DNA of 43,485 nt from Gemmatimonadota bacterium (GTDB taxonomy: Bacteria > Gemmatimonadota > Gemmatimonadetes > Gemmatimonadales > GWC2-71-9), in NCBI GenBank assembly GCA_039586365.1, contig JBDHKN010000065.1:1-43485 (forward strand). The letters are read 5' to 3'. How positions within the stretch are numbered: the first letter of the stretch is position 1; every line of letters starts with the position of its first letter. Both the position numbers and the translations under genes were made by a program. The notes beneath the pieces were generated by a model. The model was not told the origin of the DNA. It ran no database searches and was given only the letters and a program-made list of their open reading frames with translations. Below are positions 11,740 through 35,444 of this stretch, in pieces.

Positions 11740-11865
11740 CAGACAGCGGCACTGCGTATCCCGAAACGTGCAGCCCACAACAGCGGCTGCCGTAAGAGAA
11801 TGACCACGCGAACTGAAGGATGCTCCGAGTGGCAGCCGCCAAGTCATGAGCGACAACCTATGTTT

Positions 11866-11904
11866 GGGGAGAGGGCCCTCCTTGCTGGAAGGCCCGCTCT
11901 CCCC
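11866..11904. terminator. GC-rich hairpin between convergent genes
   Basis: ggggagag-ggcc-ctcc...ggaa-ggcc-cg-ctctcccc imperfect inverted repeat. Confidence 0.45.
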
Positions 11905-11929
11905 TGTCGATCAGCAGCTTGGAGCCGCG

Positions 11930-12376
11930 TCAAGATAGGGTCGCCGTGGCAGGTTGGCTGCCCCTTTGCTGCAGCCACGCATAGCTGGTACCTAGTATGA
12001 CACCGTAGACGATGTGACCAACTAGGCTAGGGAGCATGGACTGGGCAGCAGCCAGGCTCCAGTTGACGCCGAATCCCATTCCCATGAAGAGTGGCATGAG
12101 AGTGAGTGGTCCGAGCAGCCACCAGGAGATCCCATAAACCAGGCCCGCAGAGAGTCCCGCTCCGTATCCTCCAACCGAGCGACCGAGGACAACGGCAAAG
12201 CCCGCTCCGATCAATGCGCTGTTCACCATGTGAACCGCGAATCCGACTAATGCTGACGGTTGCCCCACCATCTGGCCGATCATGGGTAGCATCCCCATCA
12301 TCCCCATCATTGCCCCGAACACCACACCACCCACCAGTCCACCCAGGGCTCCCAACTTCAGGTTTGTCGCGTTCAT
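11930..12376 (-). CDS. Met/Gly-rich integral membrane protein (about 4 TM helices), function unknown
   Basis: Hydrophobic helices, 13 Met in 148 aa, two intramembrane His; RBS gaggag upstream. Confidence 0.8.
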   Translation of the reverse strand: MNATNLKLGALGGLVGGVVFGAMMGMMGMLPMIGQMVGQPSALVGFAVHMVNSALIGAGFAVVLGRSVGGYGAGLSAGLVYGISWWLLGPLTLMPLFMGMGFGVNWSLAAAQSMLPSLVGHIVYGVILGTSYAWLQQRGSQPATATLS

Positions 12377-12500
12377 GTCATCATCTCCTCTTGGAGTTAC
12401 TCTCGGTGGGAAACACCACGGGGCGTTCCCCGCTTCTGTATGTGAGTGGCGCGAGGCAACGATTTCTTACAGTTTTGGTTCGACACGAGCAAAGGTCGCC

Positions 12501-13112
12501 GTGGCAGTGACTTACGAGTACAACGGGAGCGAACGGGAGCGTCCGGGCTTGGCCGAAGGGGTGAGGGAACGCGACCCTGAGGTGTTGCGCGAGGTCGTAC
12601 GGCGGTACTTGCCCCAAGTGCTGCGGGCGGCCAGGGCAGCCGGATTCGACAGCCACCGTGCTGAGGATGTTGCTCAGTCCACGTTCGCGACCTTCGTCGA
12701 AACCGCGCACAGGTTCGAGGGTCGATCGCAGGTAAGAACCTGGCTCTTTGGTATCCTCTACAAGAAGATCGCGGAGGCCCGGCGTGCCTCGCGCCGGGAC
12801 GACGATACGGACGACATCGACCACATGTTCGAGGCCCGTTTCAACACTGACGGAAGCTGGCTGCAGCCGCCCCGGCCGGTCGACGCGGTGGTGTACGACA
12901 AGGAGATCCGTGAGCGATTAGAGGTCTGCTTGGAGCAGGTACCTTCGAAACAGCGCATGGCTTTCGTGCTTCGTGAGGTCGAAGGCCTCGAAACGGAGGA
13001 GATCTGTAAGATCCTGGAGGTCACGCGCACTAACCTAGGAGTCCTGTTTCACCGAGTGCGCAACCGCCTTCGGGAGTGTCTGGAGGCGACAGGGATAGAG
13101 GGAGCCACCTGA
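12501..13112 (+). CDS. ECF sigma-70 factor (TIGR02943/ECF13-like)
   Basis: AEDVAQSTF, FEGRSQVRTWLFGILYKKI, F..DGSW..PP linker, AFVLREVEGLETEEICKIL...LFHRVRNRLRECLE. Start taken as GTG 12501 (or 12507). Confidence 0.92.
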   Translation: MAVTYEYNGSERERPGLAEGVRERDPEVLREVVRRYLPQVLRAARAAGFDSHRAEDVAQSTFATFVETAHRFEGRSQVRTWLFGILYKKIAEARRASRRDDDTDDIDHMFEARFNTDGSWLQPPRPVDAVVYDKEIRERLEVCLEQVPSKQRMAFVLREVEGLETEEICKILEVTRTNLGVLFHRVRNRLRECLEATGIEGAT

Positions 13113-15906: not shown

Positions 15907-17136
15907 CTAGCGTCTCATTACGAGGGCTGCATTGACACCACCGAATCCGAAGGAATTGGAAAGGAGGTGCTCAACCCTCGTAGCAATACTCCCGTTGTTT
16001 ACATACTTGAGGTCACACCGCTCGTCGGGTATGCCGAGGTTGAGTGAGGTGGGTAGCAACTGGCGAAACAGGGAAGTGGCACAGATCCCGGCCTCGAGGG
16101 CACCACTCGCACCAAGCGCGTGTCCGTAGTAACCCTTCGTACCACTCACCGCCAAGCAGTTCGCGTGATCGCCGAATACCTGCTTGATGGCCAGCGTCTC
16201 GGTGCTGTCGTTGAGTGGGGTTGAAGACCCATGTGCGTTTATGTAGTCCACTTCCTCAGGACGGATTGCTGCGTCTTGCAGAGCCAGCGCCATTGCCCTA
16301 GCTGCTTCGCGCCCGTCGGGTTTGGGTGCGGTCATGTGGTGTGCGTCGTTGGTGAGTCCGTAGCCCAGTAGTTCACCGTAGATCCTTGCACCACGGGCTT
16401 CAGCCCGGTCGCGTCGCTCGAGCACCAATACTGCCGAACCTTCACTCATCACGAAGCCGTCGCGGTCGCGATCGAATGGACGTGACGCCGTTCGGGGATC
16501 GTCGTTGCGGGTGGACATGGCGCGAATGATGGTGAATGACGCGTAACAGAGCGGAGAGAGTGGTGCCTCCGATCCACCCGCCAACATGATATCGGCGTGT
16601 CCACCCCGTATGGATCTCAATGCCTCGCCGATCGCTATAGCGCCCGAAGCGCAGGACATAGCGTTGGTGGCGTTCGGACCCGTCAGACCCCATTCGATCG
16701 CGATGTTGCACGACACTGCGCCGCCGAAAACGGTCAACGCGAGATGTGACTCGACGTTCCGGAGCCCTCCCTGGCGATAGCGTTCAGCCTGTTCCTCGCC
16801 GAATGCGATGCCCCCCAACGCTGATCCCATCATCACGCCGAACCGATCGCGATTCTCTAGTGAGGGATCGATGTCGGCATCGGTGAGAGCAAGGCGGGCT
16901 GCCGCGACTCCGAGTTGGGAGAACCGGTCCAAGCGCTTGACCGAACGCCGAGATAGATGGTCCATCGGCTGGAAGTCAGGAATCTCCCCTGCGATCCTGC
17001 TGCGGAATGGCGTCGGATCGAACCGTGTGATGGTCCGCACCGCCGATTTCCGCGCACCGAGACCGGCAATCAGCTCGGTGACTCCGGTTCCGATCGGAGT
17101 AACACAGCCTATTCCGGTGATGGCGACACGCGTCAT
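15907..17136 (-). CDS. fabF: beta-ketoacyl-ACP synthase II (FabF-like ketosynthase)
   Basis: MTRVAITGIG start; catalytic Cys (NAMSCASG), His (INAHGSST), His (KGYYGHALGA); SNSFGFGG. ATGA overlap with the cyclase. Confidence 0.9.
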   Translation of the reverse strand: MTRVAITGIGCVTPIGTGVTELIAGLGARKSAVRTITRFDPTPFRSRIAGEIPDFQPMDHLSRRSVKRLDRFSQLGVAAARLALTDADIDPSLENRDRFGVMMGSALGGIAFGEEQAERYRQGGLRNVESHLALTVFGGAVSCNIAIEWGLTGPNATNAMSCASGAIAIGEALRSIRGGHADIMLAGGSEAPLSPLCYASFTIIRAMSTRNDDPRTASRPFDRDRDGFVMSEGSAVLVLERRDRAEARGARIYGELLGYGLTNDAHHMTAPKPDGREAARAMALALQDAAIRPEEVDYINAHGSSTPLNDSTETLAIKQVFGDHANCLAVSGTKGYYGHALGASGALEAGICATSLFRQLLPTSLNLGIPDERCDLKYVNNGSIATRVEHLLSNSFGFGGVNAALVMRR

Positions 17137-17588
17137 ACATGCTCCGTCTTGTGCTTCACGCCGGCCAGGGTCCGACCCGCGATCGCGTGAATAAATACAG
17201 GGCCTATTACCAGCTCCGCAGCTAGCTTGCCGATCAGCGGCCACCTGGGTCCGATCCACTCGTGGACGATCATGATGTCGACGGTCTCAGCGGCTTCCGT
17301 CAGTCGCCAGTGGACCTCCATACCCTTGGTGATACCCTTTACATGCTTGTACTCCACTCGGTGTTCGGCCGGGACCACAGTCATCTCGGATACCCACCAA
17401 GTCGGGTACTTGAACGCGCCGAATGTACGCCAGGCGGCCATCTCCACTAGTCCGCCCTGATTGTGTCGTTCGAGCATCCTGACCCACCGATAGTGCGGTA
17501 GGAACTCTGGCCAGCGCTCCACGTCACTCGCGATCTCAAAGGCTCGCGCGATCGAACCGCGCGCCGCGATCTGGTCAACCGTTCGCAT
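17133..17588 (-). CDS. SRPBCC/START-fold polyketide cyclase/aromatase-like protein
   Basis: AFEIASDVERWPEFLPHYRWV motif, 151 aa. Confidence 0.85.
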   Translation of the reverse strand: MRTVDQIAARGSIARAFEIASDVERWPEFLPHYRWVRMLERHNQGGLVEMAAWRTFGAFKYPTWWVSEMTVVPAEHRVEYKHVKGITKGMEVHWRLTEAAETVDIMIVHEWIGPRWPLIGKLAAELVIGPVFIHAIAGRTLAGVKHKTEHV

Positions 17589-18282
17589 GATGGGTTCTCC
17601 AGTACGCTACCAGTCTCCAACCCGGGCGCCGGTACACGGAAGCCTGACCAACTCCTGCGTCGGCGATCGTGCCCGCGAGCTCTTTCGCCGTGAAACCACG
17701 TCTTATCGAAAGCAACCCGTCGCGCCGAGTCACCTCGTGAAGCCGTAGCATCCGCCCAGCGAGATCGAACCCCGCCACCGCCAGGAGGGATCGTCGGAGG
17801 TCCGTGACAACGACTCCCAGTCTAGCGACCGCATCGAGTTGCTCAATGAGTGAGACCGCCTCCGGACGTGGCAAGTGATGCAGCACCATGCTCACGATTG
17901 CGATGTCTATGCTGATCGGGCGCACAGGGAGTTGGTGCAAGTCACCCACGACGGCAGTGATGCCCCTCTCACGACACATGCGCGCGGACGCCCTGTGATG
18001 GTCCAGCGCGATCGGATGCGTCAGCCTATCACCCAGCAGTCTACATACCCGCCGCGTAGCGTGCCCGCTCCCAGCGCCGATGTCCAGTATTCTGAGACGT
18101 GACGCAGCGGATTCCCCTCTCAGGAGCTTCCTGAGACCGAACTTCACGGCAGCGTGACCACCGAACAAGATGTTGGTCAGCGCGATTTCATTCAGTACAA
18201 TTTGGGCCACCGCATCGTCGAGACCGCGGGCATCCAGGGCCTCGGCCCCGGTGGGACGCAGCGGCGGTTTTTCGGCTACCAT
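17575..18282 (-). CDS. class I SAM-dependent methyltransferase
   Basis: ILDIGAGSG motif I, VLHHL, TDLRRS, DGLLSIRRGFT. ATG 18282 overlaps the upstream stop. Confidence 0.85.
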   Translation of the reverse strand: MVAEKPPLRPTGAEALDARGLDDAVAQIVLNEIALTNILFGGHAAVKFGLRKLLRGESAASRLRILDIGAGSGHATRRVCRLLGDRLTHPIALDHHRASARMCRERGITAVVGDLHQLPVRPISIDIAIVSMVLHHLPRPEAVSLIEQLDAVARLGVVVTDLRRSLLAVAGFDLAGRMLRLHEVTRRDGLLSIRRGFTAKELAGTIADAGVGQASVYRRPGWRLVAYWRTHHANG

Positions 18283-19475
18283 ACCAGCTGGCGGGTGAAT
18301 CCCGGCCGCAACACCTGCCCAGCTGGGATGAAGTCGCCGGTCACTCCCACCAGCAAATCCGCCAGATGCGGCTTCGACTGAAGGCGCCTGGCCACATGGT
18401 CGAGAGCGAACGGATGCCCGACGACCCAAGCTATGATCCGCTCAAGCATCCACTTGCCCCTGAATTCCCTGTTGCGAGCCCGGTCATAGGCTGCGAGATG
18501 CGTTGCAGTGAGCCGATCCGACTCGAGCAGGTTCGCTACCACTGACACCAGCATCTCTGCTCCCCGCAGCGCTGCGTACACTCCTTCGCCGGTAAACGGA
18601 TCGTAGAAATCCGCTGCATCTCCCACCAGCACTGCTCGCTCCGCCGATGCGCGGGTCGATGACCTGGCGAAGGGGCCCGCCCCACGTGGCGGTGCCGTAT
18701 AGTCGGCGCCCGCCAAGCGATGCTGTACCTCGGGAATCGCTTGGATCACTCGGTGGAACCAGTCGATCGGCTTGCCCCACACAGCGCGGCTATCAGCGAC
18801 TACACAGACATTGGTGAGTCCCTTCCCTACAGGCGCAAGCCCAACATATCCTCCGCGCGTCACGTGCATCTCTCCGACTGGACCCATACCAGCCACACCG
18901 TGGGCATGTGTCACCAGGGCCACTCGCTGCAGCAATCCGCGCCGAGCCAACCGGAGCTGCTTCGCGACCCGCGACTGCAAACCGTCAGCACCCACCACGA
19001 GCCGAGCGGTCACCGTGGTTCGATGTCCCTCCCGGCGCAGTTGCAGGGTTCGCGCAGACCGGGTCGGCTCACCGAGCGACTCCAGCGCAGTCCGTTCGAG
19101 CAGAGTTACTCCATTTTGCTGAGCAGCCTGTACGAGGTAATGATCCAATATGGCTCTGGGGAGGGCGATGCCCCGATCAGAGTATGCGCTGAAGCGACGA
19201 GTTGATGTGAAGTGGCCCTCAAAAGAAGTGCCGTTCGGACTCACCACTCTCATGCCCCGGAGCAGCGCCGGTCGTTCGCTGTCTAGCGCGGATGGACCAA
19301 GTAGGCTGTCCAATAGTCTGCGTGCTTCGGGGCTGACATATTCGCCACAAGGCTTCTCTCGCGGAAACGCGGCTCGGTCTAACAGCAGCACATCGGCGCC
19401 GCGATCGGCAAGCAGATTTGCCGTCGCGCTACCGGCTGGCCCGGCGCCGACAATGGCAACGTCGTAGTGGGACAT
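18276..19475 (-). CDS. FAD-dependent oxidoreductase (geranylgeranyl reductase/flavin monooxygenase-like)
   Basis: VGAGPAG Rossmann motif, FPREKPCGE, VGADG, LVGDAADFYDPFTGEG. Confidence 0.9.
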   Translation of the reverse strand: MSHYDVAIVGAGPAGSATANLLADRGADVLLLDRAAFPREKPCGEYVSPEARRLLDSLLGPSALDSERPALLRGMRVVSPNGTSFEGHFTSTRRFSAYSDRGIALPRAILDHYLVQAAQQNGVTLLERTALESLGEPTRSARTLQLRREGHRTTVTARLVVGADGLQSRVAKQLRLARRGLLQRVALVTHAHGVAGMGPVGEMHVTRGGYVGLAPVGKGLTNVCVVADSRAVWGKPIDWFHRVIQAIPEVQHRLAGADYTAPPRGAGPFARSSTRASAERAVLVGDAADFYDPFTGEGVYAALRGAEMLVSVVANLLESDRLTATHLAAYDRARNREFRGKWMLERIIAWVVGHPFALDHVARRLQSKPHLADLLVGVTGDFIPAGQVLRPGFTRQLVW

Positions 19476-19525
19476 GTTACGTTGTATATCTCAACCCGAT
19501 GAGAGTCAAGCTTGTTCCCATAACA

Positions 19526-20308
19526 ATGACCCGCTCTGTCAATTCAAGCCAGCTGCGTGACCTGAACATGCAGCAGGATCTATCGGCGCCGGCCAGCAAG
19601 CGCCGCTACGTCCGGATTCTGTTCGATACGGTGGAAAGCAGCTACGACTGGTTCACTCGGCTGTTCTCGGCTGGGATGGATGCCGCATGGAAGAAGCAGA
19701 TGGCAACCTTGCTGATTGAGAACGGGCTTACCGCAGGACGGGTGCTGGATCTGGCGACCGGCACCGGAGATCTGGTAACCCGGTTGGAGGCGCAGATCCC
19801 TGGCGCTGAAGTCATCGGAGCGGATCTTTCGCTTGGCATGGTGCGTCGGGCAAACATGCGTGCATTGCCGCGCAGACGCAGCAACGCGGTTGCCGATATG
19901 ACTACTCTGCCATACTCGTCGGGATCTATCACGGCCATCACCGCCGGATACGCCTTCCGAAATGCGCCGAACCACCCCGCTGCACTCGCAGAAGCATACC
20001 GCGTGCTTGCACCAGAAGGGTTGCTCGTCACGCTCGATTTCTACTTGCCGAAATCGCGAGTCTGGCGCCGTCTATTTCTGGGATACCTTCGTGTGGCAGG
20101 CCGGCTAGTCGGCCGCATGGTTCATGGAGTTCCCGAGGCCTACGGCTACATCGCTGCATCTCTCGAGCGATGGATGACAACTGACGACTTCTCGGCATCG
20201 CTCAATCGATCAGGATTCCAGGTGGTCGACGAACGCCTGCGGCTTGGAGGTGGAATCGCGATTCACCTTGCGAGGAAGAGGGCACAGCAACTCAGAGCTT
20301 CACTCTGA
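19526..20308 (+). CDS. UbiE/MenG-family quinone C-methyltransferase
   Basis: LFDTVESSYDWFTRLFSAGMDAAWK, VLDLATGTGD, GYAFRN, YGYIAASL. Start 19526 or 19568. Confidence 0.8.
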   Translation: MTRSVNSSQLRDLNMQQDLSAPASKRRYVRILFDTVESSYDWFTRLFSAGMDAAWKKQMATLLIENGLTAGRVLDLATGTGDLVTRLEAQIPGAEVIGADLSLGMVRRANMRALPRRRSNAVADMTTLPYSSGSITAITAGYAFRNAPNHPAALAEAYRVLAPEGLLVTLDFYLPKSRVWRRLFLGYLRVAGRLVGRMVHGVPEAYGYIAASLERWMTTDDFSASLNRSGFQVVDERLRLGGGIAIHLARKRAQQLRASL

Positions 20309-21905: not shown

Positions 21906-22334
21906 GTGCTCAAACGCGTTAGTTACATAAGCAAGTTCTCCCGCCCACTTACTAATGACGAGGTCGCTCAACTGGCGACTGACGCCGCGGAGCGGAATCG
22001 CCAATTGGGTGTGACCGGAATGCTGATGTCGAGCGGCGGGATCTTTTACCAAGTGCTCGAGGGCCCGATCGAGGCAGTTGATAGCTTGTTCCAAAAGATC
22101 GCTATCGATCCGCGCCACAAGGATGTGCTTGTACTCAGCGTCCAAGAGGAAGTGGAAGACCGGCAATTCCCGTCGTGGGCTATGAAGAAGGTCAACTTGG
22201 ATGAGGAGGCCGTAACCAGGCTGGAACCTATCAAGGCTCTGCTCGATGCCATAGTTGTGCAGCGGGAGAGCATGCAGCACTTGATGCGCGTATTGTCACG
22301 ATCGGTCTGGCAGGAGCTGATGGACGACAATTGA
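21906..22334 (+). CDS. stand-alone BLUF blue-light sensor (photoactivated adenylyl cyclase-type BLUF)
   Basis: Conserved Tyr (VSYIS), RN..GVTG.L, YQVLEG (Gln), DPRH, FPSWAM (Trp/Met); RBS ggagg. Confidence 0.93.
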   Translation: MLKRVSYISKFSRPLTNDEVAQLATDAAERNRQLGVTGMLMSSGGIFYQVLEGPIEAVDSLFQKIAIDPRHKDVLVLSVQEEVEDRQFPSWAMKKVNLDEEAVTRLEPIKALLDAIVVQRESMQHLMRVLSRSVWQELMDDN

Positions 22335-22340
22335 CAGGCG

Positions 22341-25300
22341 CTAGGAGAATTGGGTGGCGACCTCCGCCTTGCCTAGTCGCTTTGAAATGGCTGCACCCAA
22401 TTGTTGGACTTGCACCGCCCGATCAGGGAACCCTGTCTTGTGAGCGCGTTCGATAGCCAGTATCAAACACCTCACCACATCCGGCGTAAGCACTTCTGTA
22501 TCTGTCAATAGTGCCGCGGTCTGATTCAAGCTCGACTGGAAGTCATGGGCCGAACCATCGATCACGAGAGCCAAACCGAGACAACTCATCAACAGCCGAG
22601 CAACTCGCGGTACATCGAGGTCAGGGCTGCTCCGAAACTGCTCGACCTCCAAGTCGCAGCGGTCGATCGAACCCGATTCCAGAAACAGGAGCGCTCTCAA
22701 CAACCTTGGATAATGGGTCTGACGCACGAGCCCGAGTTGCTCGAACAGCTCGATGCTCTGGTCGAGTGAGAGTTCGGCATTCGTCAGCTGGCCTTCCGCA
22801 ATCTGAACCTCGGACAGGACCAGCCACGCAGCCGCCTCCACGCGGCTCATGTCCTCTCGCTGCGCAAAGGCGCGCACTCGCCGACAGAACGTCTTGGCAT
22901 GTTCTGGATCTCCTTGACACAACGCAACCCGAGCAAGGCCAAGTTGGTTTTCTGCCCAGGGAACCAGCTGGTGGATCTCCTCGTAGATTTCCTGAGCTTC
23001 GTTGAAGGTTCCCCAAGCCTGGTCCAGCAAGTCCATCTCCAACATGGCTTGCGCCTGCTCCGCCAAACACGCTGCCAGCTTATCCTTGGGTCCGGTGACA
23101 CGCAGCGTGCGTTCTGCCTCCGCAAACTCGTCAAGTGCGGCGTGCAGTCTTCCTTGGTGCTGGTTTACGCGGGCCAACACCAGATGTGCCACTCCGTCGA
23201 ATCGTTTCGTGTCAGCACTTATGGCAAGTGCTCTCACTCGATTCGCCAATCCTTCGGCTTCTTTGAGTTCTCGCCGTGTGGTGTTGATCTCTGCTCGCAA
23301 TAGCCACCCTTCCAGGCGCCGAGGATCATTGATCGGCCTGCCCAGTTCGTCCAAAGCACGGGAGTACAGCTCGAGCAGTCCGAGGGCCGCGGAGTATTCC
23401 TCCAAGCGCAAGCGCTCTCTTGCAGCCCGCAGCAGCGGACCTACCGCAGCCTCGAATTGAGTGGCCTCAAACCGATGGCGGCCGATCCGTTCGGAGTCGC
23501 CCCAATGAGGGACGGGGTGACGCTGTTCCAACATGTCCGCACACAATCGGTTGTGAGAACCCCAGCGGCCCTTTTCTCGCGCGATCCTCTCGATGCTGTC
23601 ACGCAGCATGCTGTGGCTGAAGGACCAACCACTATTCGCCATTCGGGCCATTCGGGAAGCCAACAGGGATTCCAGTACGAGAGTGGGATCCGGAATGCGT
23701 GCGAGCGAACATAGCGAGAGCCACTCGGTCATATCGACTCTGCCACCCAACACTGCTGCAAGTTCCAGTACCACCTGTATTTGAATCCGCTGAGCGACCG
23801 GAGTGGGAGATCCGATTATTCCAGCCGTACTCTCGTCCAACACGCGCTCCAACCTATGCACCCATACGGCGTGGATGTTGTCGGGAACCTCAGGTTCAAC
23901 GGCGCCAGAAAGCACGAAGCCACTGCGACCCGCTTGGAGGATCCCGCGGCCAACCCAATCCCCAACCAACTCGGTGGCGTACAGGGGGTTTGCGCCCGAA
24001 CGAGCCGAGACCCGCTCGGCCAAGTCGCCCTCGAGATACAGCATGCTGCTCACCAGCAGCCGGCTGTCTGCGGCGGAGAGAGGTTCCAAGCGTAAACACT
24101 CTGCTGCCTCTCCCAGACAGAGCTCACGCAGCAAGCCGGACGCCTCTCGTGCTTCGACCAGGAGATCGTCCCGCGCTGTGACCACGGCCATCATCGGTAT
24201 GGGCTCTACCCGCGATCTCTCCAGCACGTAGCGGGTGAAATGGAGGGCATCAACACCCCAATGCACATCATCCAGCCAAACCACAAGAGGCCTCTCACTA
24301 TACACATGGCGTAGGGCCTCGAACAGAGAACTGAAAAGCGCTGATCGAGATTGGAATTCATGAAACATCCCTGGGGTGTAGTCATCACCCAGCGAGGCAG
24401 GTCCCAGAAGCTCGGTAACAGCCCGTTGCAGTACCCGTGACTCGATTCCGGCCGACGACAAGGTGGCTGTGACACGGTCCTGCAATTCCTCTGCACTAGA
24501 GCCCAGACAAGCCCACGCTGCAGCCAGCATGTGACTGAGTTCGGATTCTCTTCCGCGAGACCGGTCGTGCTCCGCCCTGAGGCAATCGGCCAAACCCATT
24601 TCATGGGTTCGCTCACAAAACCACTCTGCCAACCGGCTCTTGCCTGCACCCGCCGATCCCTCCAAGACAACGAGCCCAGGCATCCCCCGCTCGGACACGC
24701 GTCTGAACATCTGCCACATCTGATCGCGTTCCGAATCCCGATCGACCAGCGGGACAGTTCTCAAGCCGAACAGCCGGAGACCTGTCCCAATGAGCTTGAA
24801 TGGACGCCGCTGCGGAGGGGCTGTCCTCCAATCCAACTCCGCCGCCGTGCTGAACCCAGGCAGCGATGCAGATGTGGTGGCGTAGAATCGATCGGTCTCG
24901 ACGGCGGCCCCAGACACGCCCCTGTCTCGAGTAGGAGCCGGAGTAGTCAACGATGCCAACGCAACGGTGGCGTCGGCACACCGCCTGTACCTGTTCGCGG
25001 GATTCTTTTCCAGCAGCTTCATCACCCAACTCTCGAATCCATCAGGGTAGTCTGGGTGGCAATCAAGCTCCGGAGCCCTATGCTGAATGTGTGCCAAGCC
25101 CAACTGCACCAGGTCGCGCTGCTCAAATGGAACTCGACCCGAGGCCAGCTCATACGCCACGCAACCCAGCGCGTACAGATCTGTCCAAGGGCCGAAATCA
25201 CGCCATTCACCCATGAATTGCTCGGGCGCCATGTAGGTCGGTGTACCTACGGCCGAACCGTCGGCTTCCTCGGTACGAATCTCCTTGAACGAGAACGCTA

Positions 25301-25796
25301 TGCCGAAATCGGTCAGCCGAATGGGAGACCCCGTAAGCTTGTCGGCGATGAGGATGTTGCCCGGCTTGAGGTCACGATGAGTGATGCCACGTGCGTGAGC
25401 GTGAGCAAGCCCATCAAGCACCGCCATCAGGATCTCCCTCGCCCTTGGCCAGGGGAGCGGATACTCCAGTGAATCGAGTGACCCGCGCTCAAGATACTCC
25501 ATTACCAGATAGGGGCTGCCTATGTCGAGAGCACCGGCTGACGCGCTGGATGTCTCCTCGGGCACATCGCCTATGTCGAACAAAGTGATGATGCCCGGAT
25601 GGTCAAGCTGCGCCACCGCTCGCACCTCACTGCGGAAGACCCTCCTGAAATAGTGGTCTTCCTCGCTCTTCCGCCTTATCACCTTGATCGCGACGGGGAT
25701 ATCTTGAACGACGTGCACGCCGCTCCAGATATCTCCCATCCCACCTGAAGCAATCCTTTCCAGCACTTCGAATGAGCCCAACCGGAACCCGCTCAT
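22341..25796 (-). CDS. Ser/Thr kinase fused to an AAA/STAND-like ATPase and TPR-like helical repeats
   Basis: IASGGMGDIW, VAIKV, HRDLKPGN, DFG, YMAPE; PLVDRDSE, Walker A GSAGAGKS, Walker B VVWLDD, GANPLY; helical C-terminus. Confidence 0.92.
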   Translation of the reverse strand: MSGFRLGSFEVLERIASGGMGDIWSGVHVVQDIPVAIKVIRRKSEEDHYFRRVFRSEVRAVAQLDHPGIITLFDIGDVPEETSSASAGALDIGSPYLVMEYLERGSLDSLEYPLPWPRAREILMAVLDGLAHAHARGITHRDLKPGNILIADKLTGSPIRLTDFGIAFSFKEIRTEEADGSAVGTPTYMAPEQFMGEWRDFGPWTDLYALGCVAYELASGRVPFEQRDLVQLGLAHIQHRAPELDCHPDYPDGFESWVMKLLEKNPANRYRRCADATVALASLTTPAPTRDRGVSGAAVETDRFYATTSASLPGFSTAAELDWRTAPPQRRPFKLIGTGLRLFGLRTVPLVDRDSERDQMWQMFRRVSERGMPGLVVLEGSAGAGKSRLAEWFCERTHEMGLADCLRAEHDRSRGRESELSHMLAAAWACLGSSAEELQDRVTATLSSAGIESRVLQRAVTELLGPASLGDDYTPGMFHEFQSRSALFSSLFEALRHVYSERPLVVWLDDVHWGVDALHFTRYVLERSRVEPIPMMAVVTARDDLLVEAREASGLLRELCLGEAAECLRLEPLSAADSRLLVSSMLYLEGDLAERVSARSGANPLYATELVGDWVGRGILQAGRSGFVLSGAVEPEVPDNIHAVWVHRLERVLDESTAGIIGSPTPVAQRIQIQVVLELAAVLGGRVDMTEWLSLCSLARIPDPTLVLESLLASRMARMANSGWSFSHSMLRDSIERIAREKGRWGSHNRLCADMLEQRHPVPHWGDSERIGRHRFEATQFEAAVGPLLRAARERLRLEEYSAALGLLELYSRALDELGRPINDPRRLEGWLLRAEINTTRRELKEAEGLANRVRALAISADTKRFDGVAHLVLARVNQHQGRLHAALDEFAEAERTLRVTGPKDKLAACLAEQAQAMLEMDLLDQAWGTFNEAQEIYEEIHQLVPWAENQLGLARVALCQGDPEHAKTFCRRVRAFAQREDMSRVEAAAWLVLSEVQIAEGQLTNAELSLDQSIELFEQLGLVRQTHYPRLLRALLFLESGSIDRCDLEVEQFRSSPDLDVPRVARLLMSCLGLALVIDGSAHDFQSSLNQTAALLTDTEVLTPDVVRCLILAIERAHKTGFPDRAVQVQQLGAAISKRLGKAEVATQFS

Positions 25797-25980
25797 GTTC
25801 TCAAACCCCTGACCGGAGTCAGCTTCGTCTCCTTGTCTCTTTCCAGTACTAGACTACACGCCTGAACGACCGATAGAAACACCACACATCTGGTCAGATC
25901 CATCAAGGGCTGGGACCCATCGGCCGAATAGATGGCTCGCCGTGGGCGATTCGGGCGATCTCACGTCGCTGCCGCCAGGC

Positions 25981-26052: not shown

Positions 26053-26526
26053 ATGACCAATGCGTTGAAACTACTGGTCTCGATTGCCGTCCCACTCTCA
26101 GTGGGCGGTCTGTCCGGTTTCGCCACCGCTCGTGGTGTCCAGGACTGGTATCCCACTCTCGCCAAACCTCCGTTCAACCCTCCATCTTGGGTATTTGGTC
26201 CCGTCTGGACCCTACTGTATCTAATGATGGGTGTGGCGGCTTTTCTGGTGTGGCAGAGAGGTTGGAACAACGAAGCAGTCAGAATAGCGCTGGCGTTGTT
26301 CTTGGTGCAGCTTGTACTCAACGGGCTGTGGTCAGTCCTGTTTTTCGGGATGCAGTCGCCAGGTCTGGCCTTCGCCGAGATCATCGTACTGTGGCTGTCG
26401 ATCGGTACCACCGTGATACTGTTCTGGCGCGTCAGCCCAGTTGCAGGGAAGCTCTTGTTGCCGTATGCGGCGTGGGTCAGTTTCGCCGCGGTGCTGAACG
26501 GGTCTATTTGGATCTTGAACCGATAG
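26053..26526 (+). CDS. tspO: TspO/MBR tryptophan-rich sensory protein
   Basis: WYPTLAKPPFNPPSWVFGPVWTLLY, QLVLNGLWSVLFFG, LLLPYAAWVSFAAVLN. Confidence 0.95.
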   Translation: MTNALKLLVSIAVPLSVGGLSGFATARGVQDWYPTLAKPPFNPPSWVFGPVWTLLYLMMGVAAFLVWQRGWNNEAVRIALALFLVQLVLNGLWSVLFFGMQSPGLAFAEIIVLWLSIGTTVILFWRVSPVAGKLLLPYAAWVSFAAVLNGSIWILNR

Positions 26527-26591
26527 AACGGTTCAGCAATTGAACGATCGAACGACAACGTTCACGTAAACGATACGGCAGGTGAATCGAC

Positions 26592-26999
26592 ATGACTCTT
26601 TCGAGCCTCCTCAAGCTATACGCCGTCGCCCTCCCCACGTTCCTGGTGATCGACTTGGTCTGGTTGGGCGTTGTTGCGCGTTCGTTCTATCAGACTCAAC
26701 TCGGCCACTTGATGCGGGCCAATGTCAACTGGACAGCGGCGATGGTGTTCTACCTGTTGTTCGTGGTCGGCATCGTGGCGTTGGTGGTGTGGCCTGCTAT
26801 TGAGCGCCAGAGTCTGCTGCGTGCACTGCTGCTTGGTGCCTTGCTTGGTCTAGTCACGTACGCCGCCTACGACCTCACCAACCTCGCGATTCTGCAGGGT
26901 TTTCCGCTCATTATCGCGCTCGTTGACATGGCATGGGGCACGGTGCTGTGCGCGAGTGTCAGCGCCATCACCTACCGCATTGGGATCTGGCTGCTGTAG
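26592..26999 (+). CDS. DUF2177-family membrane protein
   Basis: FLVIDLVWLG...FY...GLVTYAAYDLTNLA...VDMAWG. Confidence 0.88.
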   Translation: MTLSSLLKLYAVALPTFLVIDLVWLGVVARSFYQTQLGHLMRANVNWTAAMVFYLLFVVGIVALVVWPAIERQSLLRALLLGALLGLVTYAAYDLTNLAILQGFPLIIALVDMAWGTVLCASVSAITYRIGIWLL

Positions 27000-27408: not shown

Positions 27409-28563
27409 GTGGACGCGGACTTGGCGCTAGTGGGCGGTGGTCTGGCCAACAGCCTCATCGCCTACCGGCTGTCTCAGGTGCGACCGGACCTACGAGCACT
27501 CTGGTCGTTCAATGCAGCCGACCTGACAGAGGAGCAGCACCACTGGATCGGACCCTTCGTTGAGTATAGCTGGCCCGGTTACGAGGTGAGGTTTCCTGAG
27601 TTCACCCGCTGGATAGACAGTGGCTATTTCTCTATCACCTCGCGCCGGCTGCACCAGGTTGTCGCTGATTCGTTAGGCGATCGTGTGTTGCTGAGCAGCG
27701 ACGTGGAGTCGATCAACCCTTCCGAGATCGCACTGAGAGACAGCGGGCCCATCCGGACGGCTGTCGTGATAGATGGCCGCGGACCAGTGCACAGCCCGCA
27801 TCTGGTGATTCGTTACCAGAAGTTCGTGGGTCAGGTAGTGCGGCTCGACAAGTGCCATGGACTGTCCGGCCCGATACTAATGGATGCAACCGTAGAGCAG
27901 CTCAACGGCTACCGTTTCATTTACGTGCTGCCCCTTACGGAAGACAGGGCGCTCATCGAGGATACACGCTACAGTGACTCACCGGCGCTCGAGCGAGATG
28001 ACTACGCTAGAGCAATCCAGCACTATGCCGATAGGCAGGGCTGGGGTTTGAGGGATGTCGATTGCGAGGAAGAAGGCGTCCTGCCGGTTGCTCTGTCCGG
28101 CGACATCGAGAGCTTCTGGGATGATGGGCAGCAGGGCGTTGCGCGCTCGGGGCTCCGAGCCGCACTGTTTCACCCAACAACCGGATACTCGCTACCCAAT
28201 GCGGTTCGCTTGGCCGATTATCTCGGCGGGGACATGCCACGGAGTGGTGGTGCCTTAGCCAACAGAGTGAAGCAACGATCGGTAGAGCACTGGCACAATA
28301 CCCGATTCTTCCGCATGCTGAACAGAATGCTGTTCCTGGCAGGTGAACCGTCGCAGCGATTTCGCGTATTTCAGCGTTTCTATCGGCTTCACAAATCGCT
28401 CATCGAGCGGTTCTATGCGGGTAGCCTGACATACTCTGACCAGTTCAGGTTACTGTCCGGCCGGCCTCCGGTGCCGGTCGTTCGAGCAGTGTCGGCGGTA
28501 TTCTCTTCCGGGAGAGAGGCTGAGGGACGCGATTCATCCAGCAAAGTGAGGGAGGACCAATGA
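27409..28563 (+). CDS. crtY: lycopene beta-cyclase CrtY, with an apparent in-frame deletion near the N-terminus
   Basis: LVGGGLANSLIA, YQKFVG, PILMDATVEQ, LIEDTRYSD, LFHPTTGYSLP, FFRMLNRMLF, ERFYAG, GRPPVP. Confidence 0.92.
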   Translation: MDADLALVGGGLANSLIAYRLSQVRPDLRALWSFNAADLTEEQHHWIGPFVEYSWPGYEVRFPEFTRWIDSGYFSITSRRLHQVVADSLGDRVLLSSDVESINPSEIALRDSGPIRTAVVIDGRGPVHSPHLVIRYQKFVGQVVRLDKCHGLSGPILMDATVEQLNGYRFIYVLPLTEDRALIEDTRYSDSPALERDDYARAIQHYADRQGWGLRDVDCEEEGVLPVALSGDIESFWDDGQQGVARSGLRAALFHPTTGYSLPNAVRLADYLGGDMPRSGGALANRVKQRSVEHWHNTRFFRMLNRMLFLAGEPSQRFRVFQRFYRLHKSLIERFYAGSLTYSDQFRLLSGRPPVPVVRAVSAVFSSGREAEGRDSSSKVREDQ

Positions 28564-30077
28564 CACAACCCCGCGCCGTGGTAATCGGCAGCGGCTTCGG
28601 CGGCCTCGCGCTGGCTGTGCGGCTCCAGGCCGCCGGCGTACAGACAACGGTGGTAGAGAAGAGAGACAAGCCCGGCGGCCGGGCGTACGTGTATGAGGAT
28701 GAAGGGTTCACCTTCGACGGTGGTCCGACGGTCCTTACCGCCCCGAATGCAGTAGAAGAGCTGTTCCAACTGGCCGAGCGAGACATGGGCGATTACGTAG
28801 ATCTCTTGCCGGTCATGCCGTTCTATCGACTCTGTTGGGAGGACGGCTACAGCTTCGACTACAGCAACGATCTCGACGCTACGAATGCCCAGATCGCCAA
28901 AAAGAGTCCCGATGACGTTGACGGATACGCGAGGTTTCTGAGATACGCTGAGGAAGTGTTCCAAGAGGGTTACGTGAACCTCGCCCACGAGCCGTTCCTC
29001 GACTTCTGGAGCATGATCCGGGTGGCTCCCCAACTGATTCGACTCGAGAGCTACCGCAGTGTCTACAGTATGGTCGGCAAGTTCATCCGCGACCCTCAGC
29101 TGCGTCAGGTTTACAGCTTTCACTCGTTGCTGGTCGGCGGCAATCCGTTCAAGACGTCCTCCATCTACACGCTCATCCACGTGCTGGAACGCAAGTGGGG
29201 TGTCTTCTTCCCGAGGGGAGGCACGGGCGCATTAGTTAGCGCACTGGTCAAGCTGTTCAGCGAGCTGGGCGGTGAGATCAGGCTAGGAGCACCTGTCGAC
29301 CGGATTCTCACTCAGAACGGCCGTGTCGCCGGAGTGGCCACAGCAGATGGTTGGAGCACCAGTGTCGACACGGTAGCCAGCAACGCAGACGTAGTTCACA
29401 CTTATCGCCGCCTGCTAGAGCACGAACCCCGAGCCAACGACACCACGCGGCGCCTACTCAACCGCCGCTATAGCATGTCGCTGTTCGTGATCTACTTCGG
29501 AACCCGCAAACGGCACCCTGAGCTGGCCCACCATTCGGTGTTGTTTGGAAGTCGGTATCGCGGATTGCTGGACGACATATTCGAGCGCGGTGTACTGGCC
29601 GATGACTTCTCACTCTACCTGCATGCACCGACTGTCACCGACAGCTCGTTGGCACCACCCGGCGGCGAGGCGTTTTACGTACTCTCACCAGTGCCCCATC
29701 TGGGCAAGGCCAACATCGATTGGGAAGCTGAAGGACCTCGCTACAGAGACCGCATTCTGGAGTACCTAGAGCAGCGTTACATACCGAATCTCCGACAGGA
29801 CTTGGTCACCACGCGTATTTTCACGCCCAGGGACTTCGCTCGAGTGCTGAACGGGCATCTGGGATCCGCGTTCTCCTTGGAGCCCGTGCTTACGCAGAGT
29901 GCCTACTTCCGGGTGCACAATCGTGACCCACACATCGGAGGACTGTACTTCGTCGGCGCAGGTACGCATCCAGGCGCCGGTGTTCCGGGCGTGGTCGCAT
30001 CTGCCAGAGCCACGGCAAGCCTCATACTTGCCGACGTCGGACAGGGACATCGTACCAGGAAGCATCCAGCCGAGTGA
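28560..30077 (+). CDS. crtI: phytoene desaturase
   Basis: VIGSGFGGLA, FTFDGGPTV, SLLVGGNPF, FSLEPVLTQSAYFR, VGAGTHPGAGVPGV. Confidence 0.96.
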   Translation: MTQPRAVVIGSGFGGLALAVRLQAAGVQTTVVEKRDKPGGRAYVYEDEGFTFDGGPTVLTAPNAVEELFQLAERDMGDYVDLLPVMPFYRLCWEDGYSFDYSNDLDATNAQIAKKSPDDVDGYARFLRYAEEVFQEGYVNLAHEPFLDFWSMIRVAPQLIRLESYRSVYSMVGKFIRDPQLRQVYSFHSLLVGGNPFKTSSIYTLIHVLERKWGVFFPRGGTGALVSALVKLFSELGGEIRLGAPVDRILTQNGRVAGVATADGWSTSVDTVASNADVVHTYRRLLEHEPRANDTTRRLLNRRYSMSLFVIYFGTRKRHPELAHHSVLFGSRYRGLLDDIFERGVLADDFSLYLHAPTVTDSSLAPPGGEAFYVLSPVPHLGKANIDWEAEGPRYRDRILEYLEQRYIPNLRQDLVTTRIFTPRDFARVLNGHLGSAFSLEPVLTQSAYFRVHNRDPHIGGLYFVGAGTHPGAGVPGVVASARATASLILADVGQGHRTRKHPAE

Positions 30078-30081
30078 ATCC

Positions 30082-31023
30082 GTGGATGAGGTAGCTAGCT
30101 ACAGCCGAGAGACAATCAGGAGCGGTTCGAAGAGCTTCGCGGCGGCGGCTCGACTGCTGGACAGAAGGACGCGCGAGAGCGCACACATGCTCTACGCATG
30201 GTGCCGCTACTGTGACGATCAGATCGATAGCCAGCACCTGGGGGTTGCGGTCGAAAGGCAACCCTCATCGAGCCGTAGTCGGCTAACGCGCTTGGAGCGG
30301 GAAACTCGGCGGGCGCTCGCCGGCGCACCCGTGGAGCATCCGGCTTTCGTGGCCCTCAGCCGTGTGGTGAAGCGCCATGGTATTCCGCATCGTTACCCAC
30401 TGGAGCTGCTCCAGGGATTCGCGATGGACGTGGGGCAGTGTCGCTACAACGAGCTCGAAGACACCCTGCTGTACTGCTATCACGTGGCGGGAGTGGTAGG
30501 AGTGATGATGGCCTACGTGCTGGGAGCCACGAGCAGTGATACACTGTTGCGTGCTGCGGACCTCGGCATCGCCTTCCAACTCACTAACATAGCGCGCGAC
30601 GTCATGGACGACGCACGCCGTGGTCGTATCTACCTGCCTTCCAAGTGGCTTGCGGAGGTGGGAGTGCCGTCTGCGGACATCATGCTCCCGGAGCATCGTC
30701 CGGCCGTATTCACGGTCGTGAGGGGTCTCCTGGATGAGGCGGACCGATACTATGACTCCGCCGCCAAAGGATTACCCCAACTCAGGTGGCGGGCGGCTTG
30801 GGGGATCGCTACTGCACGGACTGTCTACCGTAACATCGGGTGTGTTGTCGTCGAGCGGGGGCCTGCAGCCTGGGATCGACGCGCGGTTGTGGGCCGCGGA
30901 CGAAAGGTGTGGGGGGCTTTCCGCGGACTACTGCGAGCTGCTACCGCGGTTTCCATAGGCCGGCTGCTACCCGCCAAGCAGCGGACGGGCCTGTGGACCA
31001 AGCCGGTTCAGAACGACGCCTGA
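30082..31023 (+). CDS. crtB: phytoene synthase
   Basis: GSKSFAAA, LYAWCRYCDDQID, YCYHVAGVVG, AFQLTNIARDVMDDARRGRIYLP. GTG start at 30082 is inferred. Confidence 0.95.
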   Translation: MDEVASYSRETIRSGSKSFAAAARLLDRRTRESAHMLYAWCRYCDDQIDSQHLGVAVERQPSSSRSRLTRLERETRRALAGAPVEHPAFVALSRVVKRHGIPHRYPLELLQGFAMDVGQCRYNELEDTLLYCYHVAGVVGVMMAYVLGATSSDTLLRAADLGIAFQLTNIARDVMDDARRGRIYLPSKWLAEVGVPSADIMLPEHRPAVFTVVRGLLDEADRYYDSAAKGLPQLRWRAAWGIATARTVYRNIGCVVVERGPAAWDRRAVVGRGRKVWGAFRGLLRAATAVSIGRLLPAKQRTGLWTKPVQNDA

Positions 31024-31036
31024 GTTCGCGCCAGTC

Positions 31037-31513
31037 TCAGCCCTGCCGGGATTGGGCACGAGTCCGCGCTCGCTCCTCCCTGAGCTTCTCTAGCGGGGGC
31101 GCGTAGAGGAAACCAAAGCTCACCGCCCCATCCCGATCCTTCGTGGCATGGTGCATGTAGTGCGCCTGCACGACGCGCTGCAAGTAACCGCTCTTCGGCT
31201 TGTACCTGAGGCGAATGCGTCGATGGACCAGCACGTCATGGAACAGGAAGTAGACAAACCCGTAGGCTGTCATTCCCAAACCGATCCACAACAGAGAGTC
31301 GAACACATTGGTGCCGAGGTAGATCAGCACGATCGCCGGAATCGCGAAGAACACGGCGAAGAGATCGTTCTTCTCGAAGCGACCCTGCCTCGGCACATGG
31401 TGTGACTCATGCAACGCCCACAGGAATCCGTGCATGACATACTTGTGTGTGAAGTACGCCATCACTTCCATGCCCGCCAGGGATCCCAAGAAGAGTAGTA
31501 GGTTGAAGAGCAT
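31037..31513 (-). CDS. crtZ: beta-carotene 3-hydroxylase
   Basis: HKYVMHG, LHESHH, FEKND, HDVLVHRR, HYMHH, VSFGFL. Confidence 0.95.
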   Translation of the reverse strand: MLFNLLLFLGSLAGMEVMAYFTHKYVMHGFLWALHESHHVPRQGRFEKNDLFAVFFAIPAIVLIYLGTNVFDSLLWIGLGMTAYGFVYFLFHDVLVHRRIRLRYKPKSGYLQRVVQAHYMHHATKDRDGAVSFGFLYAPPLEKLREERARTRAQSRQG

Positions 31514-34754: not shown

Positions 34755-35444
34755 TCAAGCGCGGTACCCGACACGCGTGGCCTTGTACCAAGCTGCGAGT
34801 CGTCCGGGTGAGATGCCGAGGTGGTACGCGACAGTGATGGCGAAGTTCACGACGGTGGTACGAACGACTCCGAGTCTCTGCCATCTCCGACCCGACGTCT
34901 TGGCTCGCAGCGGTAGGATAACCACTCGGCCGCGCCGTCTCATGCGCCGGACGAACTCGTAGTCCTCCATTATCGGCAATACGGCGAATCCACCGGCGTC
35001 AGCAAAGGTATCCGCCCGTACGAATATCGCCTGATCACCGTAGGGGAGCTGGCTGCGCCGAGAGCGGGTGTCCACGACCGCCTCGACAAGGCGATACTTG
35101 GCACCGCTAGCGTCGATTGCGAGTGAGAATGCGCCTGCCGCCACTCCATACTCAGAGAGCGCTTCTGCCACAGCGTCCCCGTATCCAGCCGGCAGTACCG
35201 TGTCGGCGTGCAGGAAGAGAAGAACATCGCCTGTGGCTGCCTCGGCGCCCTCGTTCATTTGCCGTGCGCGGTTTGAACCAGTCACGACTACTCGAGCGCC
35301 GGCAGACTCCGCTACAGCCACGGTATCGTCGGATGAGCCGCCGTCGACGACAATAACCTCTGTGGCTCCTCCAGCGAGTGCCGACGTCACCGCCGCCGCG
35401 ACATTTGCCGCTTCGTTCAACGCCGGTATCACAACCGAGATCAT
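34755..35444 (-). CDS. TIGR04283-family GT2 glycosyltransferase (arsenosugar-cluster type)
   Basis: ISVVIPALNE, VDGGSSD, RARQMNEGA, LFLHADT, PYGDQAIF, PIMED, TSGRRW. Confidence 0.9.
   Translation of the reverse strand: MISVVIPALNEAANVAAAVTSALAGGATEVIVVDGGSSDDTVAVAESAGARVVVTGSNRARQMNEGAEAATGDVLLFLHADTVLPAGYGDAVAEALSEYGVAAGAFSLAIDASGAKYRLVEAVVDTRSRRSQLPYGDQAIFVRADTFADAGGFAVLPIMEDYEFVRRMRRRGRVVILPLRAKTSGRRWQRLGVVRTTVVNFAITVAYHLGISPGRLAAWYKATRVGYRA

Follow-up and report, generated by a model that had tools for sequence, protein, structure and literature searches.

A cyclase-less PAC-type BLUF protein linked tail-to-tail to a kinase-STAND-TPR protein in Gemmatimonadota, a candidate blue-light switch in trans

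Short BLUF photoreceptors can signal in trans to a separate protein, as in the pairings PixD-PixE, PapB-PapA and BlsA-Fur. For bacterial STAND kinases, we know of few whose activators have been established, and a search of the literature returned no account of light acting on the kinase-AAA_16-TPR class. In the available portions of PMC4844311, PapB and PixD are described as short BLUFs and phototropin as a LOV-Ser/Thr kinase. The STAND protein MalT is controlled by a separate inhibitor protein, MalY (PMC10427625, available in part). For the photoactivated adenylyl cyclase (PAC) OaPAC, the accessible sections of PMC13740344 assign roles to residues of helix alpha3 and describe Y125 as coupling this helix to the cyclase. 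No described pairing of a BLUF protein with a STAND kinase was found in the literature, nor in the available parts of PMC12817894, PMC5899715 and PMC13236601.

The window, by which we mean the whole stretch of 43,485 nucleotides that was analysed, comes from a Gemmatimonadota bacterium. An ORF check reproduced the two genes reported in the first-pass annotation: a 142-aa BLUF protein (21906-22334, plus strand) with a GTG start preceded by a GGAGG ribosome site, and a convergent 1151-aa kinase protein (22341-25796, minus strand), with 6 nt separating the two stops. The gene order described beside the kinase start, tspO-DUF2177-crtYIB, was also recovered, since the Pfam scan gave tspO, DUF2177, lycopene cyclase, CrtI-type oxidase and SQS_PSY, divergent from the kinase. 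Their convergent orientation precludes a common operon. A promoter and terminator scan stayed at chance level (2 versus 1.8; 6 versus 4.2). The features of the locus are the following.

21906..22334, plus strand: stand-alone PAC-type BLUF photoreceptor, core about residues 1-100 (PF04940, best PDB matches, invariant columns in 43 family members)
22203..22322, plus strand: C-terminal output helix of the BLUF, residues 100-139 (AlphaFold2, column counts, gap-free alignment to OaPAC 1-119)
22341..25796, minus strand: Ser/Thr kinase-STAND NTPase-TPR protein, convergent with the BLUF (Pfam, AlphaFold2, Foldseek)
24942..25772, minus strand: Hanks-type kinase domain, residues 9-285 (invariant motifs in 20/20 covering orthologues)
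23574..24779, minus strand: STAND module with NBD, helical domain and winged helix, residues 340-741 (motifs; boundaries from the AlphaFold2 model)
23472..23552, minus strand: orthologue-specific conserved patch at the winged helix/TPR junction, residues 749-775 (identity contrast)
22347..23399, minus strand: TPR-like solenoid of the sensor, residues 800-1150 (modelled helix pairs, conservation contrast, PF17874)
26053..26999, plus strand: tspO (26053-26526) and DUF2177 (26592-26999), divergent from the kinase (Pfam)
27409..31513, plus strand: crtY, crtI and crtB, plus a hydroxylase on the opposite strand (Pfam)

According to its source DNA runs, the stretch occurs in estuary and marine-sediment samples, runs holding a small share of it having been left out of this habitat reading, and no RNA run was among the listed holders. 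Light may be scarce in such habitats.

The BLUF domain was matched by PF04940 at residues 2-94 (E 2.8e-27, 95.1 bits against a cut-off of 25), and Foldseek recognised its ferredoxin-like BLUF fold. In a phmmer search of the PDB, OaPAC came out on top (E 2.5e-31, residues 2-120 without gaps), followed by bPAC (2.6e-27), BlrB (1.3e-15) and, still weaker, PixD and AppA (1e-7 to 1e-10). The family profile and Foldseek ranked these relatives in the same order, so that the PAC likeness proposed in the first-pass annotation held up in three comparisons. In a tree built on the core alone, the family grouped with PAC P0164 at 99/99 while 24 ordinary BLUFs fell outside this branch, which places the protein apart from the ordinary short BLUFs. 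As to nesting inside the PAC clade, which would mean a secondary loss of the cyclase, the tree contained a single distinct PAC core, and monophyly of the family excluding that PAC was not rejected (p-AU 0.32). The photochemical Tyr, Gln, Trp and Met are indeed kept, as Y7, Q49, W91 and M93 were invariant in 43/43 family members along with the flavin-binding Asn N31 (residues assigned on the basis of OaPAC numbering). The protein had been called an orphan, which is apt as far as the lacking cyclase is concerned but not otherwise, the gene being one of a conserved family with 89 matches in Gemmatimonadota (68-100% identity). Three 207-aa "kinase" BLUF matches (P0015-17) consist of a short kinase-like fragment before a normal family BLUF and were read as extended gene calls. 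Viral contigs yielded no relative; all 219 plasmid records were below 60% identity, with ordinary BLUFs among the 25 matches listed, and the ESM Atlas yielded generic BLUF and kinase-AAA clusters only. A crude test of the genome's reading frames for LOV, phytochrome, photolyase and rhodopsin motifs found none.

No cyclase domain is fused to the BLUF, which stops at residue 142, and the earlier observation that no cyclase follows was borne out by tblastn (E up to 1), in which neither the window nor any of 19 related loci showed a cyclase remnant after the BLUF. An assembly error as the cause of this early stop was rejected, since contigs from two other DNA runs cross the junction of BLUF and kinase free of indels and the other family members stop at the same position. 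AlphaFold2 predicted a helix at residues 100-139 (mean pLDDT 87.6). The alpha3 dimer residues of the PACs are kept in it, P108, L112 and I116 corresponding to OaPAC P107, L111 and L115. The alignments to PACs end at residue 117-127, the PAC alpha4 handle is absent, and the family consensus has no Tyr in columns 96-142 that could be the counterpart of Tyr125. Past alpha3 the tail is family-specific, with L130, R132 and W135 invariant and Ser or Thr at position 131, beside R132, in 43/43 members. Despite the missing cyclase, the tail has stayed as strongly conserved as the core, which suggests that it probably still contacts something.

For the kinase protein, Pfam delimited Pkinase at 9-270, AAA_16 at 350-513 and TPR_MalT at 833-1056, and the AlphaFold2 model reached a pLDDT of 86.4 and a pTM of 0.82. 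Foldseek matched it to PknB and to the STAND-TPR structure 6mfv (E 2.4e-14, 762 columns, rmsd 9.3). Kinase motifs were counted in the 20 of 25 orthologues that cover the kinase domain, the other five being partial: K38, E57, D142, K144, N147, D163-F-G and P191-E192 were invariant in 20/20, and the HRD Arg was present in 17/20. In the NTPase, Walker A (G380/G385/K386) was found in 24/24 orthologues, Walker B lies at D509-D510, and D510, R542, P604 and H728 occurred in 25/25. The kinase and NTPase motifs are all intact. Motifs, model and Foldseek together give the STAND layout of a P-loop NBD, a helical domain with GxP, a winged helix and a repeat sensor. The MalT NCBIfam model scored just 20 on this protein against a cut-off of 537. 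Among distant relatives of the STAND module are proteins with class III cyclases, and both this and the architecture point to a putative place in the SWACOS clade; kinase-AAA_16-TPR proteins go by the label SWACOS-like STANDs. In FastTree, the BLUF-linked kinases formed one clade of 25 with a long stem and a support of 100. Residues 751-775 had an identity of 0.86 among the orthologues versus 0.39 in 31 distant relatives, and the patch 749-775 could be a docking site. Further orthologue-specific residues are scattered over the TPR solenoid (R876, S912, E913, W947, Q951, R956 and E987).

The BLUF and an orthologous kinase were arranged tail-to-tail in 17/17 other loci with readable downstream DNA, down to kinase identities of 44-54%; in an 18th genome, each gene lies at the end of a different contig. 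One further locus (L015, 36% identity over 68 residues) was excluded as a non-orthologue, and L011-L013 were too short for neighbour counts. Both genes occurred in identical sets of genomes, namely 8 of 301 from the family, 2 of 401 from the phylum and 1 of 181 from a second family; these samples overlap and contain 9 pair genomes in all, from 5 genera and patchy within genera. No genome in the three samples had only one of the two, and 16 other genomes of the phylum sample carried ordinary BLUFs and no kinase orthologue. From the protein search, 20 of 25 kinase orthologues could be associated with a family BLUF, 10 in the same locus and 10, indirectly, by a contig of equal size. Ordinary short-BLUF ancestry and unlinked homologues, the first two outcomes that the first-pass annotation had set against its own proposal, were thus not what was found. 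Both genes are under purifying selection (dN/dS in five comparisons 0.08-0.11 for the BLUF and 0.15-0.21 for the kinase), and their identities match across genomes (rho 0.81), which may reflect plain descent since all these genomes are kin. No BLUF-kinase fusion emerged from one limited search of longer proteins, its single match being a true PAC, and a 1447-aa frame in L001 was dismissed as a fusion because it crosses a 100-N gap and continues as a histidine kinase. The other window genes adjoin the pair in a few loci at most, and neither a transcription factor nor any other substrate accompanies it. The BLUF-kinase pair is a real, rare unit.

The proposal that the kinase governs the carotenoid genes fared less well. 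crtYIB flanks the pair in 1/16 loci, which is this window; crtI was not found in 3/9 pair genomes (84-93% complete), and in one pair genome the orthologous crt cluster lies elsewhere, behind a CarH-type box. The crt genes are therefore outside the conserved unit, and carotenoid control is not supported. A looser tie to photoprotection did receive some backing, as photoprotection-type genes flank the pair in 6/16 loci and are absent beside it in 10/16. A photolyase-like DPRP was present in 5/9 pair genomes versus 5/52 others, and crtI in 6/9 versus 12/52, comparisons in which kin are not independent and the controls are not random. tspO also adjoins the pair in L008 (start only, at a contig end) and G227, and tspO/DUF2177 are recurring yet unfixed neighbours. 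It had been noted that no LitR/CarH or CrtJ regulator is encoded nearby, which is correct for the 37 window ORFs scanned, but contig C84 of the same genome carries a CarH-like gene. A strict pattern found no CarH-type box in the window; the best profile score there was 10.8, equalled or bettered by 292 genome sites, and this is a lead only since the profile was trained on the genome's own sites.

As the pair is tail-to-tail in every readable related locus of these uncultured sediment bacteria, light likely switches the kinase. Taken as a whole, the first-pass reading is partly supported, and we lean towards a blue-light switch made of two proteins, in which the cyclase-less BLUF would bind the kinase-STAND-TPR protein in trans and set the kinase on or off. 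By analogy with PACs, the BLUF would bind flavin and dimerise through alpha3, and light would shift the paired C-terminal helices of the dimer. By analogy with STAND proteins such as MalT and NLRs, the helix pair may dock on the arm/TPR sensor region, either at patch 749-775 or in the TPR groove; docking would shift the ADP/ATP switch and the oligomer state, which in turn would set trans-autophosphorylation of the kinase domains. That this PAC-derived photoreceptor is the dedicated input of the STAND kinase, with light gating nucleotide exchange and oligomerisation through the BLUF dimer, is a more tentative proposition to which we give slightly less than even credence. Analogy mildly favours dark-state inhibition that is released by light, with the BLUF as a MalY-like clamp. 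The output is probably some light-stress response rather than dedicated crt control. A complex prediction with two copies of BLUF 1-140 and kinase residues 338-1056, thus lacking the kinase domain and the C-terminal 95 residues, scored 0.00 twice; controls were not folded, and it counts neither for nor against binding.

Co-occurrence gives no direction, and the same pathway could be wired otherwise: the STAND sensor would read another signal and the kinase would phosphorylate the BLUF tail, tuning light output elsewhere, or both proteins would act on an unseen third one. The invariant Ser/Thr at position 131 would suit such wiring, but it could merely cap a helix and the pair has no conserved third gene next to it, and we regard this as unlikely. 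Passive linkage is improbable to a greater degree. Tight tail-to-tail spacing could by itself keep two genes together, and unrelated genes might have been acquired once, held by overlapping 3' ends and lost together, often within CarH-controlled light islands; overlapping stops in 10/17 loci, CarH-type boxes close to the BLUF in L001 and L010, with a weaker one in L043, and identities that follow taxonomy are in line with this. However, the stop-to-stop gap varies from -16 to +42 nt and conservation is lacking at the 3' ends, which leaves the junction able to change, while the flanking genes have been replaced repeatedly on both sides and the searched genomes include none with a single gene.

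Two other explanations would give the pair a different task. In its architecture the protein resembles STAND receptors with TPR sensors, many of them serving in defence according to the available part of PMC13581612, and PADLOC kinase models do match the kinase domain; a kinase-STAND-TPR protein acting as an NLR-like anti-phage sensor that the BLUF arms or mutes by daylight is nevertheless very improbable. Of the best 25 of 32 PADLOC matches, all lie on the kinase domain (one reaching 448) and none is an Avs model, the Pfam-scanned neighbours include no recognised defence gene except one WapI-like immunity protein in L005, and the high conservation of the TPR region would be unlike a fast arms race. 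We would give the lowest odds to a split PAC, in which the BLUF would act on an adenylyl cyclase encoded elsewhere, with the kinase as a bystander or a reader further downstream. Its PAC ancestry, the retained alpha3 and the cyclases borne by distant STAND relatives could hint at it, but the sole class III cyclase found in the genome is long and already equipped with N-terminal input domains, such a cyclase occurs in 25/26 genomes tested irrespective of a BLUF, no pair locus contains one, and OaPAC Y125 is without its counterpart in the tail.

If the BLUF is indeed the dedicated input through which light gates the STAND kinase, the kinase would be, as far as we could find, the first STAND protein under light control, and the pair would be a naturally occurring, genetically encoded light switch in two parts for the assembly of STAND proteins and for phosphorylation. 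Genomics here names a candidate lamp-switchable input, with which STAND activation and kinase oligomerisation would become testable in time. Such a switch would also mean that the sensor module of PACs can function without its cyclase, that Ser/Thr phosphorylation joins the outputs of bacterial BLUF sensors, and that light is sensed by non-model sediment Gemmatimonadota. Were the linkage merely passive, a new stand-alone PAC-type BLUF family would still remain.

Among known systems, OaPAC and bPAC, with their BLUF-alpha3-cyclase layout, are the nearest solved relatives of the BLUF by sequence and fold, gap-free over 2-120 and sharing the Y/Q/W/M residues and the three alpha3 positions. They differ in that the cyclase is absent here, the match ending at 120-127 before a family-specific conserved helix, and the putative partner is a separate gene. 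PixD, PapB and BlsA resemble it as stand-alone flavin sensors that carry C-terminal helices and would work through protein contact, but they belong to another BLUF lineage, and what they are known to pair with is a response regulator, a phosphodiesterase or repressors instead of a STAND kinase. Kinase-AAA_16-TPR proteins of Myxococcota/Deltaproteobacteria and others share the architecture at 28-36% identity, whereas the BLUF-linked kinases form a separate long-stem clade. Avs and bacterial NLR defence systems have neither a match nor a defence-island context here, as judged from the listed PADLOC matches and the Pfam neighbours. Phototropin shares the proposed outcome, blue-light flavin control of a Ser/Thr kinase, with LOV instead of BLUF, fused instead of in trans, and without a STAND switch. 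In MalT-MalY, a STAND-TPR switch can likewise be clamped by a partner protein that blocks oligomerisation, but the effector of MalT is DNA-binding whereas here it is an N-terminal kinase, and the partner here is a photoreceptor.

The first-pass annotation had described a 142-aa BLUF and an 1151-aa kinase-AAA-TPR protein with adjoining stops, and this is confirmed by the ORF coordinates and Pfam:

21906-22334, + strand: BLUF ORF, 142 aa (Pfam BLUF)
22341-25796, - strand: kinase ORF, 1151 aa (Pfam kinase, AAA_16 and MalT-like TPR)

The two stops lie 6 nt apart. Pfam places tspO, DUF2177, crtY, crtI and crtB beyond the kinase start, and a thioredoxin and a peroxiredoxin before the BLUF gene. Relatives that carry names are Gemmatimonadota, and the genome is 86% complete. 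Most of the stretch was found in two estuary metagenome runs (a third run is from marine sediment), and in two of the three examined runs the BLUF-kinase junction is spanned by contigs without indels.

Several other features of the window were recorded. A block at 15907-20308 (FabF-like synthase, SRPBCC protein, two methyltransferases, FAD oxidoreductase) also precedes the BLUF gene in locus L002 and, in part, in L008. At 9346-13112 Pfam finds another kinase-TPR gene with an ECF sigma factor gene behind it; since such kinases are very numerous in this genome, it implies no link to the pair. The product of 23-2131 is a B12-binding radical SAM protein whose C-terminus gives a weak STAS-like match in Pfam. 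Upstream of the kinase gene, a short element (25850-25909), by eye common to L003, L008 and L042, is possibly its promoter.

To follow the pair across loci, 15 loci were taken from two collection scans, one non-orthologue was dropped, and three from genomes were added to the remaining 14. In all 17 the kinase orthologue stands tail-to-tail behind the BLUF gene, with gaps of -16 to +42 nt and overlapping stops in 10. L013 and L014 seem to come from a single strain, and four of the loci coincide with genome hits. The kinase is in two frames in L045 and interrupted by a scaffold gap in L001, and in genome G227 the two genes each lie at the end of a different contig. The proposed check on co-occurrence came out in favour of the pairing: both genes were found in the same 8 of 301 genomes of the family (BLUF E <1e-60, kinase E <1e-200), the same 2 of 401 of the phylum and the same 1 of 181 of a second family, and no genome of these overlapping samples, which include the window's own, held one gene alone. 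Among the other genomes of the family sample, 5 had ordinary BLUFs and 4 weak kinase matches only. The nine carriers span five genera and are patchy within them.

Protein searches gave a similar picture. Ten of 25 kinase orthologues adjoin a BLUF and a further ten are on a contig of exactly the same length as that of a family BLUF; three are on contigs too short and two are unmatched. For several BLUFs on long contigs the protein list contains no size-matched kinase, but this list is incomplete and misses, for example, the kinase of genome G524. Five dN/dS comparisons yielded 0.08-0.11 for BLUF and 0.15-0.21 for the kinase. The pair itself is the conserved unit, a real, rare and tightly conserved sensor-kinase pair. 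Separately, proteins P0061 and P0141, a family BLUF (78% identity) and a non-orthologous kinase-STAND-TPR protein named as Deltaproteobacteria, are both on contigs of 34,219 nt, which may be one contig.

The BLUF was said to be PAC-type without a cyclase, and this stands. Among the 22 sequences of solved structures that matched, OaPAC and bPAC take the top nine ranks (E 2.5e-31 to 1e-26), followed by BlrB (E 1.3e-15), and no cyclase follows the BLUF in the window or in 19 related loci. The alignment with OaPAC is free of gaps over residues 2-120, so that OaPAC residues can be transferred: Y6, Q48, W90, M92, P107, L111 and L115, whose roles are described in PMC13740344, correspond to Y7, Q49, W91, M93, P108, L112 and I116. 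Of these, Y7 to P108 do not vary among 43 aligned family BLUFs; L112 occurs in 41 of them, and at position 116 every member has I, L or V. The PAC likeness stops at residue 117-127, and the tail beyond is family-specific and conserved (L130, R132 and W135 invariant, S/T131 in 43/43). AlphaFold2 predicts a BLUF fold with a single long helix at 100-139 (pLDDT 87.6), for which Foldseek again ranked PACs at the top. Among proteins of 78-249 aa, 89 of 92 matches had 68-100% identity, the window's own included; among longer proteins the only match was a true PAC at 40% identity, which is weak evidence against fusions. In trees that contained a single distinct PAC, family BLUFs join it and stand separate from 24 ordinary BLUFs, both with the tail (support 98/98) and on the core alone (99/99). 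Monophyly of the family to the exclusion of that PAC is not rejected (p-AU 0.32), and the family may or may not nest inside the PACs. The protein is, as judged from its sequence, a PAC-type BLUF and not a PAC.

The kinase of the pair is intact. Of 25 orthologues, 20 cover the kinase domain, and all of these share the same catalytic residues; Walker A, Walker B and three additional STAND positions are retained in 24-25 of 25. The confident structure model (pLDDT 86.4, pTM 0.82) has PknB-type kinases and the archaeal STAND-TPR protein 6mfv among its Foldseek matches. In a tree with 31 relatives (28-36% identity), of which some carry the name Deltaproteobacteria, the 25 orthologues form a single clade on a long stem (FastTree support 100). 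Residues 751-775 (identity 0.86 among orthologues versus 0.39 in relatives) and a set of orthologue-specific TPR residues are a possible binding surface.

The claim that the kinase governs carotenoid genes is not supported. Flanks could be used in 16 loci, the window among them, and only in the window do crtY/I/B genes adjoin the pair; the carotenoid link is local to the window. Photoprotection-type neighbours, among which tspO and DUF2177 are counted, occur in 6 of the 16 loci, with nothing of the kind in ten: tspO in the window, L008 and G227, a photolyase-related DPRP gene divergent from the kinase gene in L004, L010 and G227, and a desaturase with FAD oxidoreductase in L001. The LitR light-regulon includes photolyase, cryptochrome-like, SDR, FAD oxidoreductase and fatty-acid genes (PMC9758184). 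In a survey of 61 chosen, incomplete genomes with non-random controls, crtI was found in 6/9 pair genomes versus 12/52 others, and DPRP in 5/9 versus 5/52. SDR fragments seen by eye directly upstream of BLUF in L008 (~2170-2260) and L009 (~8960-9090) are perhaps leftovers of the DPRP-SDR block of L010 and L044. Beside the crt block, 34755-37159 encodes ArsS radical SAM, TIGR04282 and TIGR04283, arsenosugar biosynthesis genes above NCBIfam cut-offs. Relative to 3/3 homologues, the window's crtY (27409-28563) has an in-frame deletion of 13 residues in the flavin-binding region, around residue 31, and its lycopene cyclase may be inactive; since a contig of sequencing run X2 departs from the window sequence at 27502, the full-length crtY may exist in another strain.

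A B12-binding frame of similar size is present in 9/9 pair genomes (one under the cut-off) and 24/52 others. In the window's genome this frame, on contig C84, begins, as judged by eye, like a MerR protein, and it is accompanied by tandem 11-bp boxes of CarH form (consensus from PMC9304148). The CarH/LitR-like gene and boxes lie at C84:18400-25300 amid fasciclin-like, SRPBCC-like and NAD-binding genes (named by eye), and on contig C32 another such box stands before a desaturase gene. Boxes were also found before the crt cluster of G227, near BLUF in L001 and L010 and, weaker, in L043; none was found in the window. These findings make CarH the likelier crt regulator in the pair-bearing group, and BLUF itself may be light-induced in some genomes.

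With an intact sensor, an intact STAND kinase and strict co-occurrence in hand, we lean towards a BLUF dimer switching the kinase-STAND-TPR protein in trans. The BLUF would dimerise via alpha3, the helix after its core, and light would shift the paired tails as in OaPAC (PMC13740344). Contact of the tails with the STAND protein would bias its nucleotide (ADP/ATP) and oligomer state, in the manner of MalY acting on MalT (PMC10427625). Oligomerisation would then set trans-activation of the kinase domains.

Reversed or indirect wiring of the two proteins is unlikely, and passive linkage of the genes more doubtful still, even though the correlation of their pairwise identities (rho 0.81, 14 pairs) could come from shared descent alone. 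Light-gated defence we regard as improbable: STAND clades with and without a defence role are intermingled (PMC13581612, section 5), yet the PADLOC matches, among those listed, fall on the kinase domain. Hardly credible is a split PAC, since the only class III cyclase of the genome carries input domains of its own, and 25/26 genomes tested have such a cyclase.

Regarding the favoured switching in trans, the literature covered, largely outside subscription journals, describes neither a cyclase-less PAC-type BLUF family nor a pairing of BLUF with a STAND protein or a Ser/Thr kinase, and no paper combined 'STAND ATPase' with BLUF; these proteins may appear in the supplements of PMC13581612 and PMC4844311. 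Short BLUF proteins made up 64% of BLUF proteins in a 2014 survey (PMC4844311), and stand-alone BLUFs signalling by contact are a known type.
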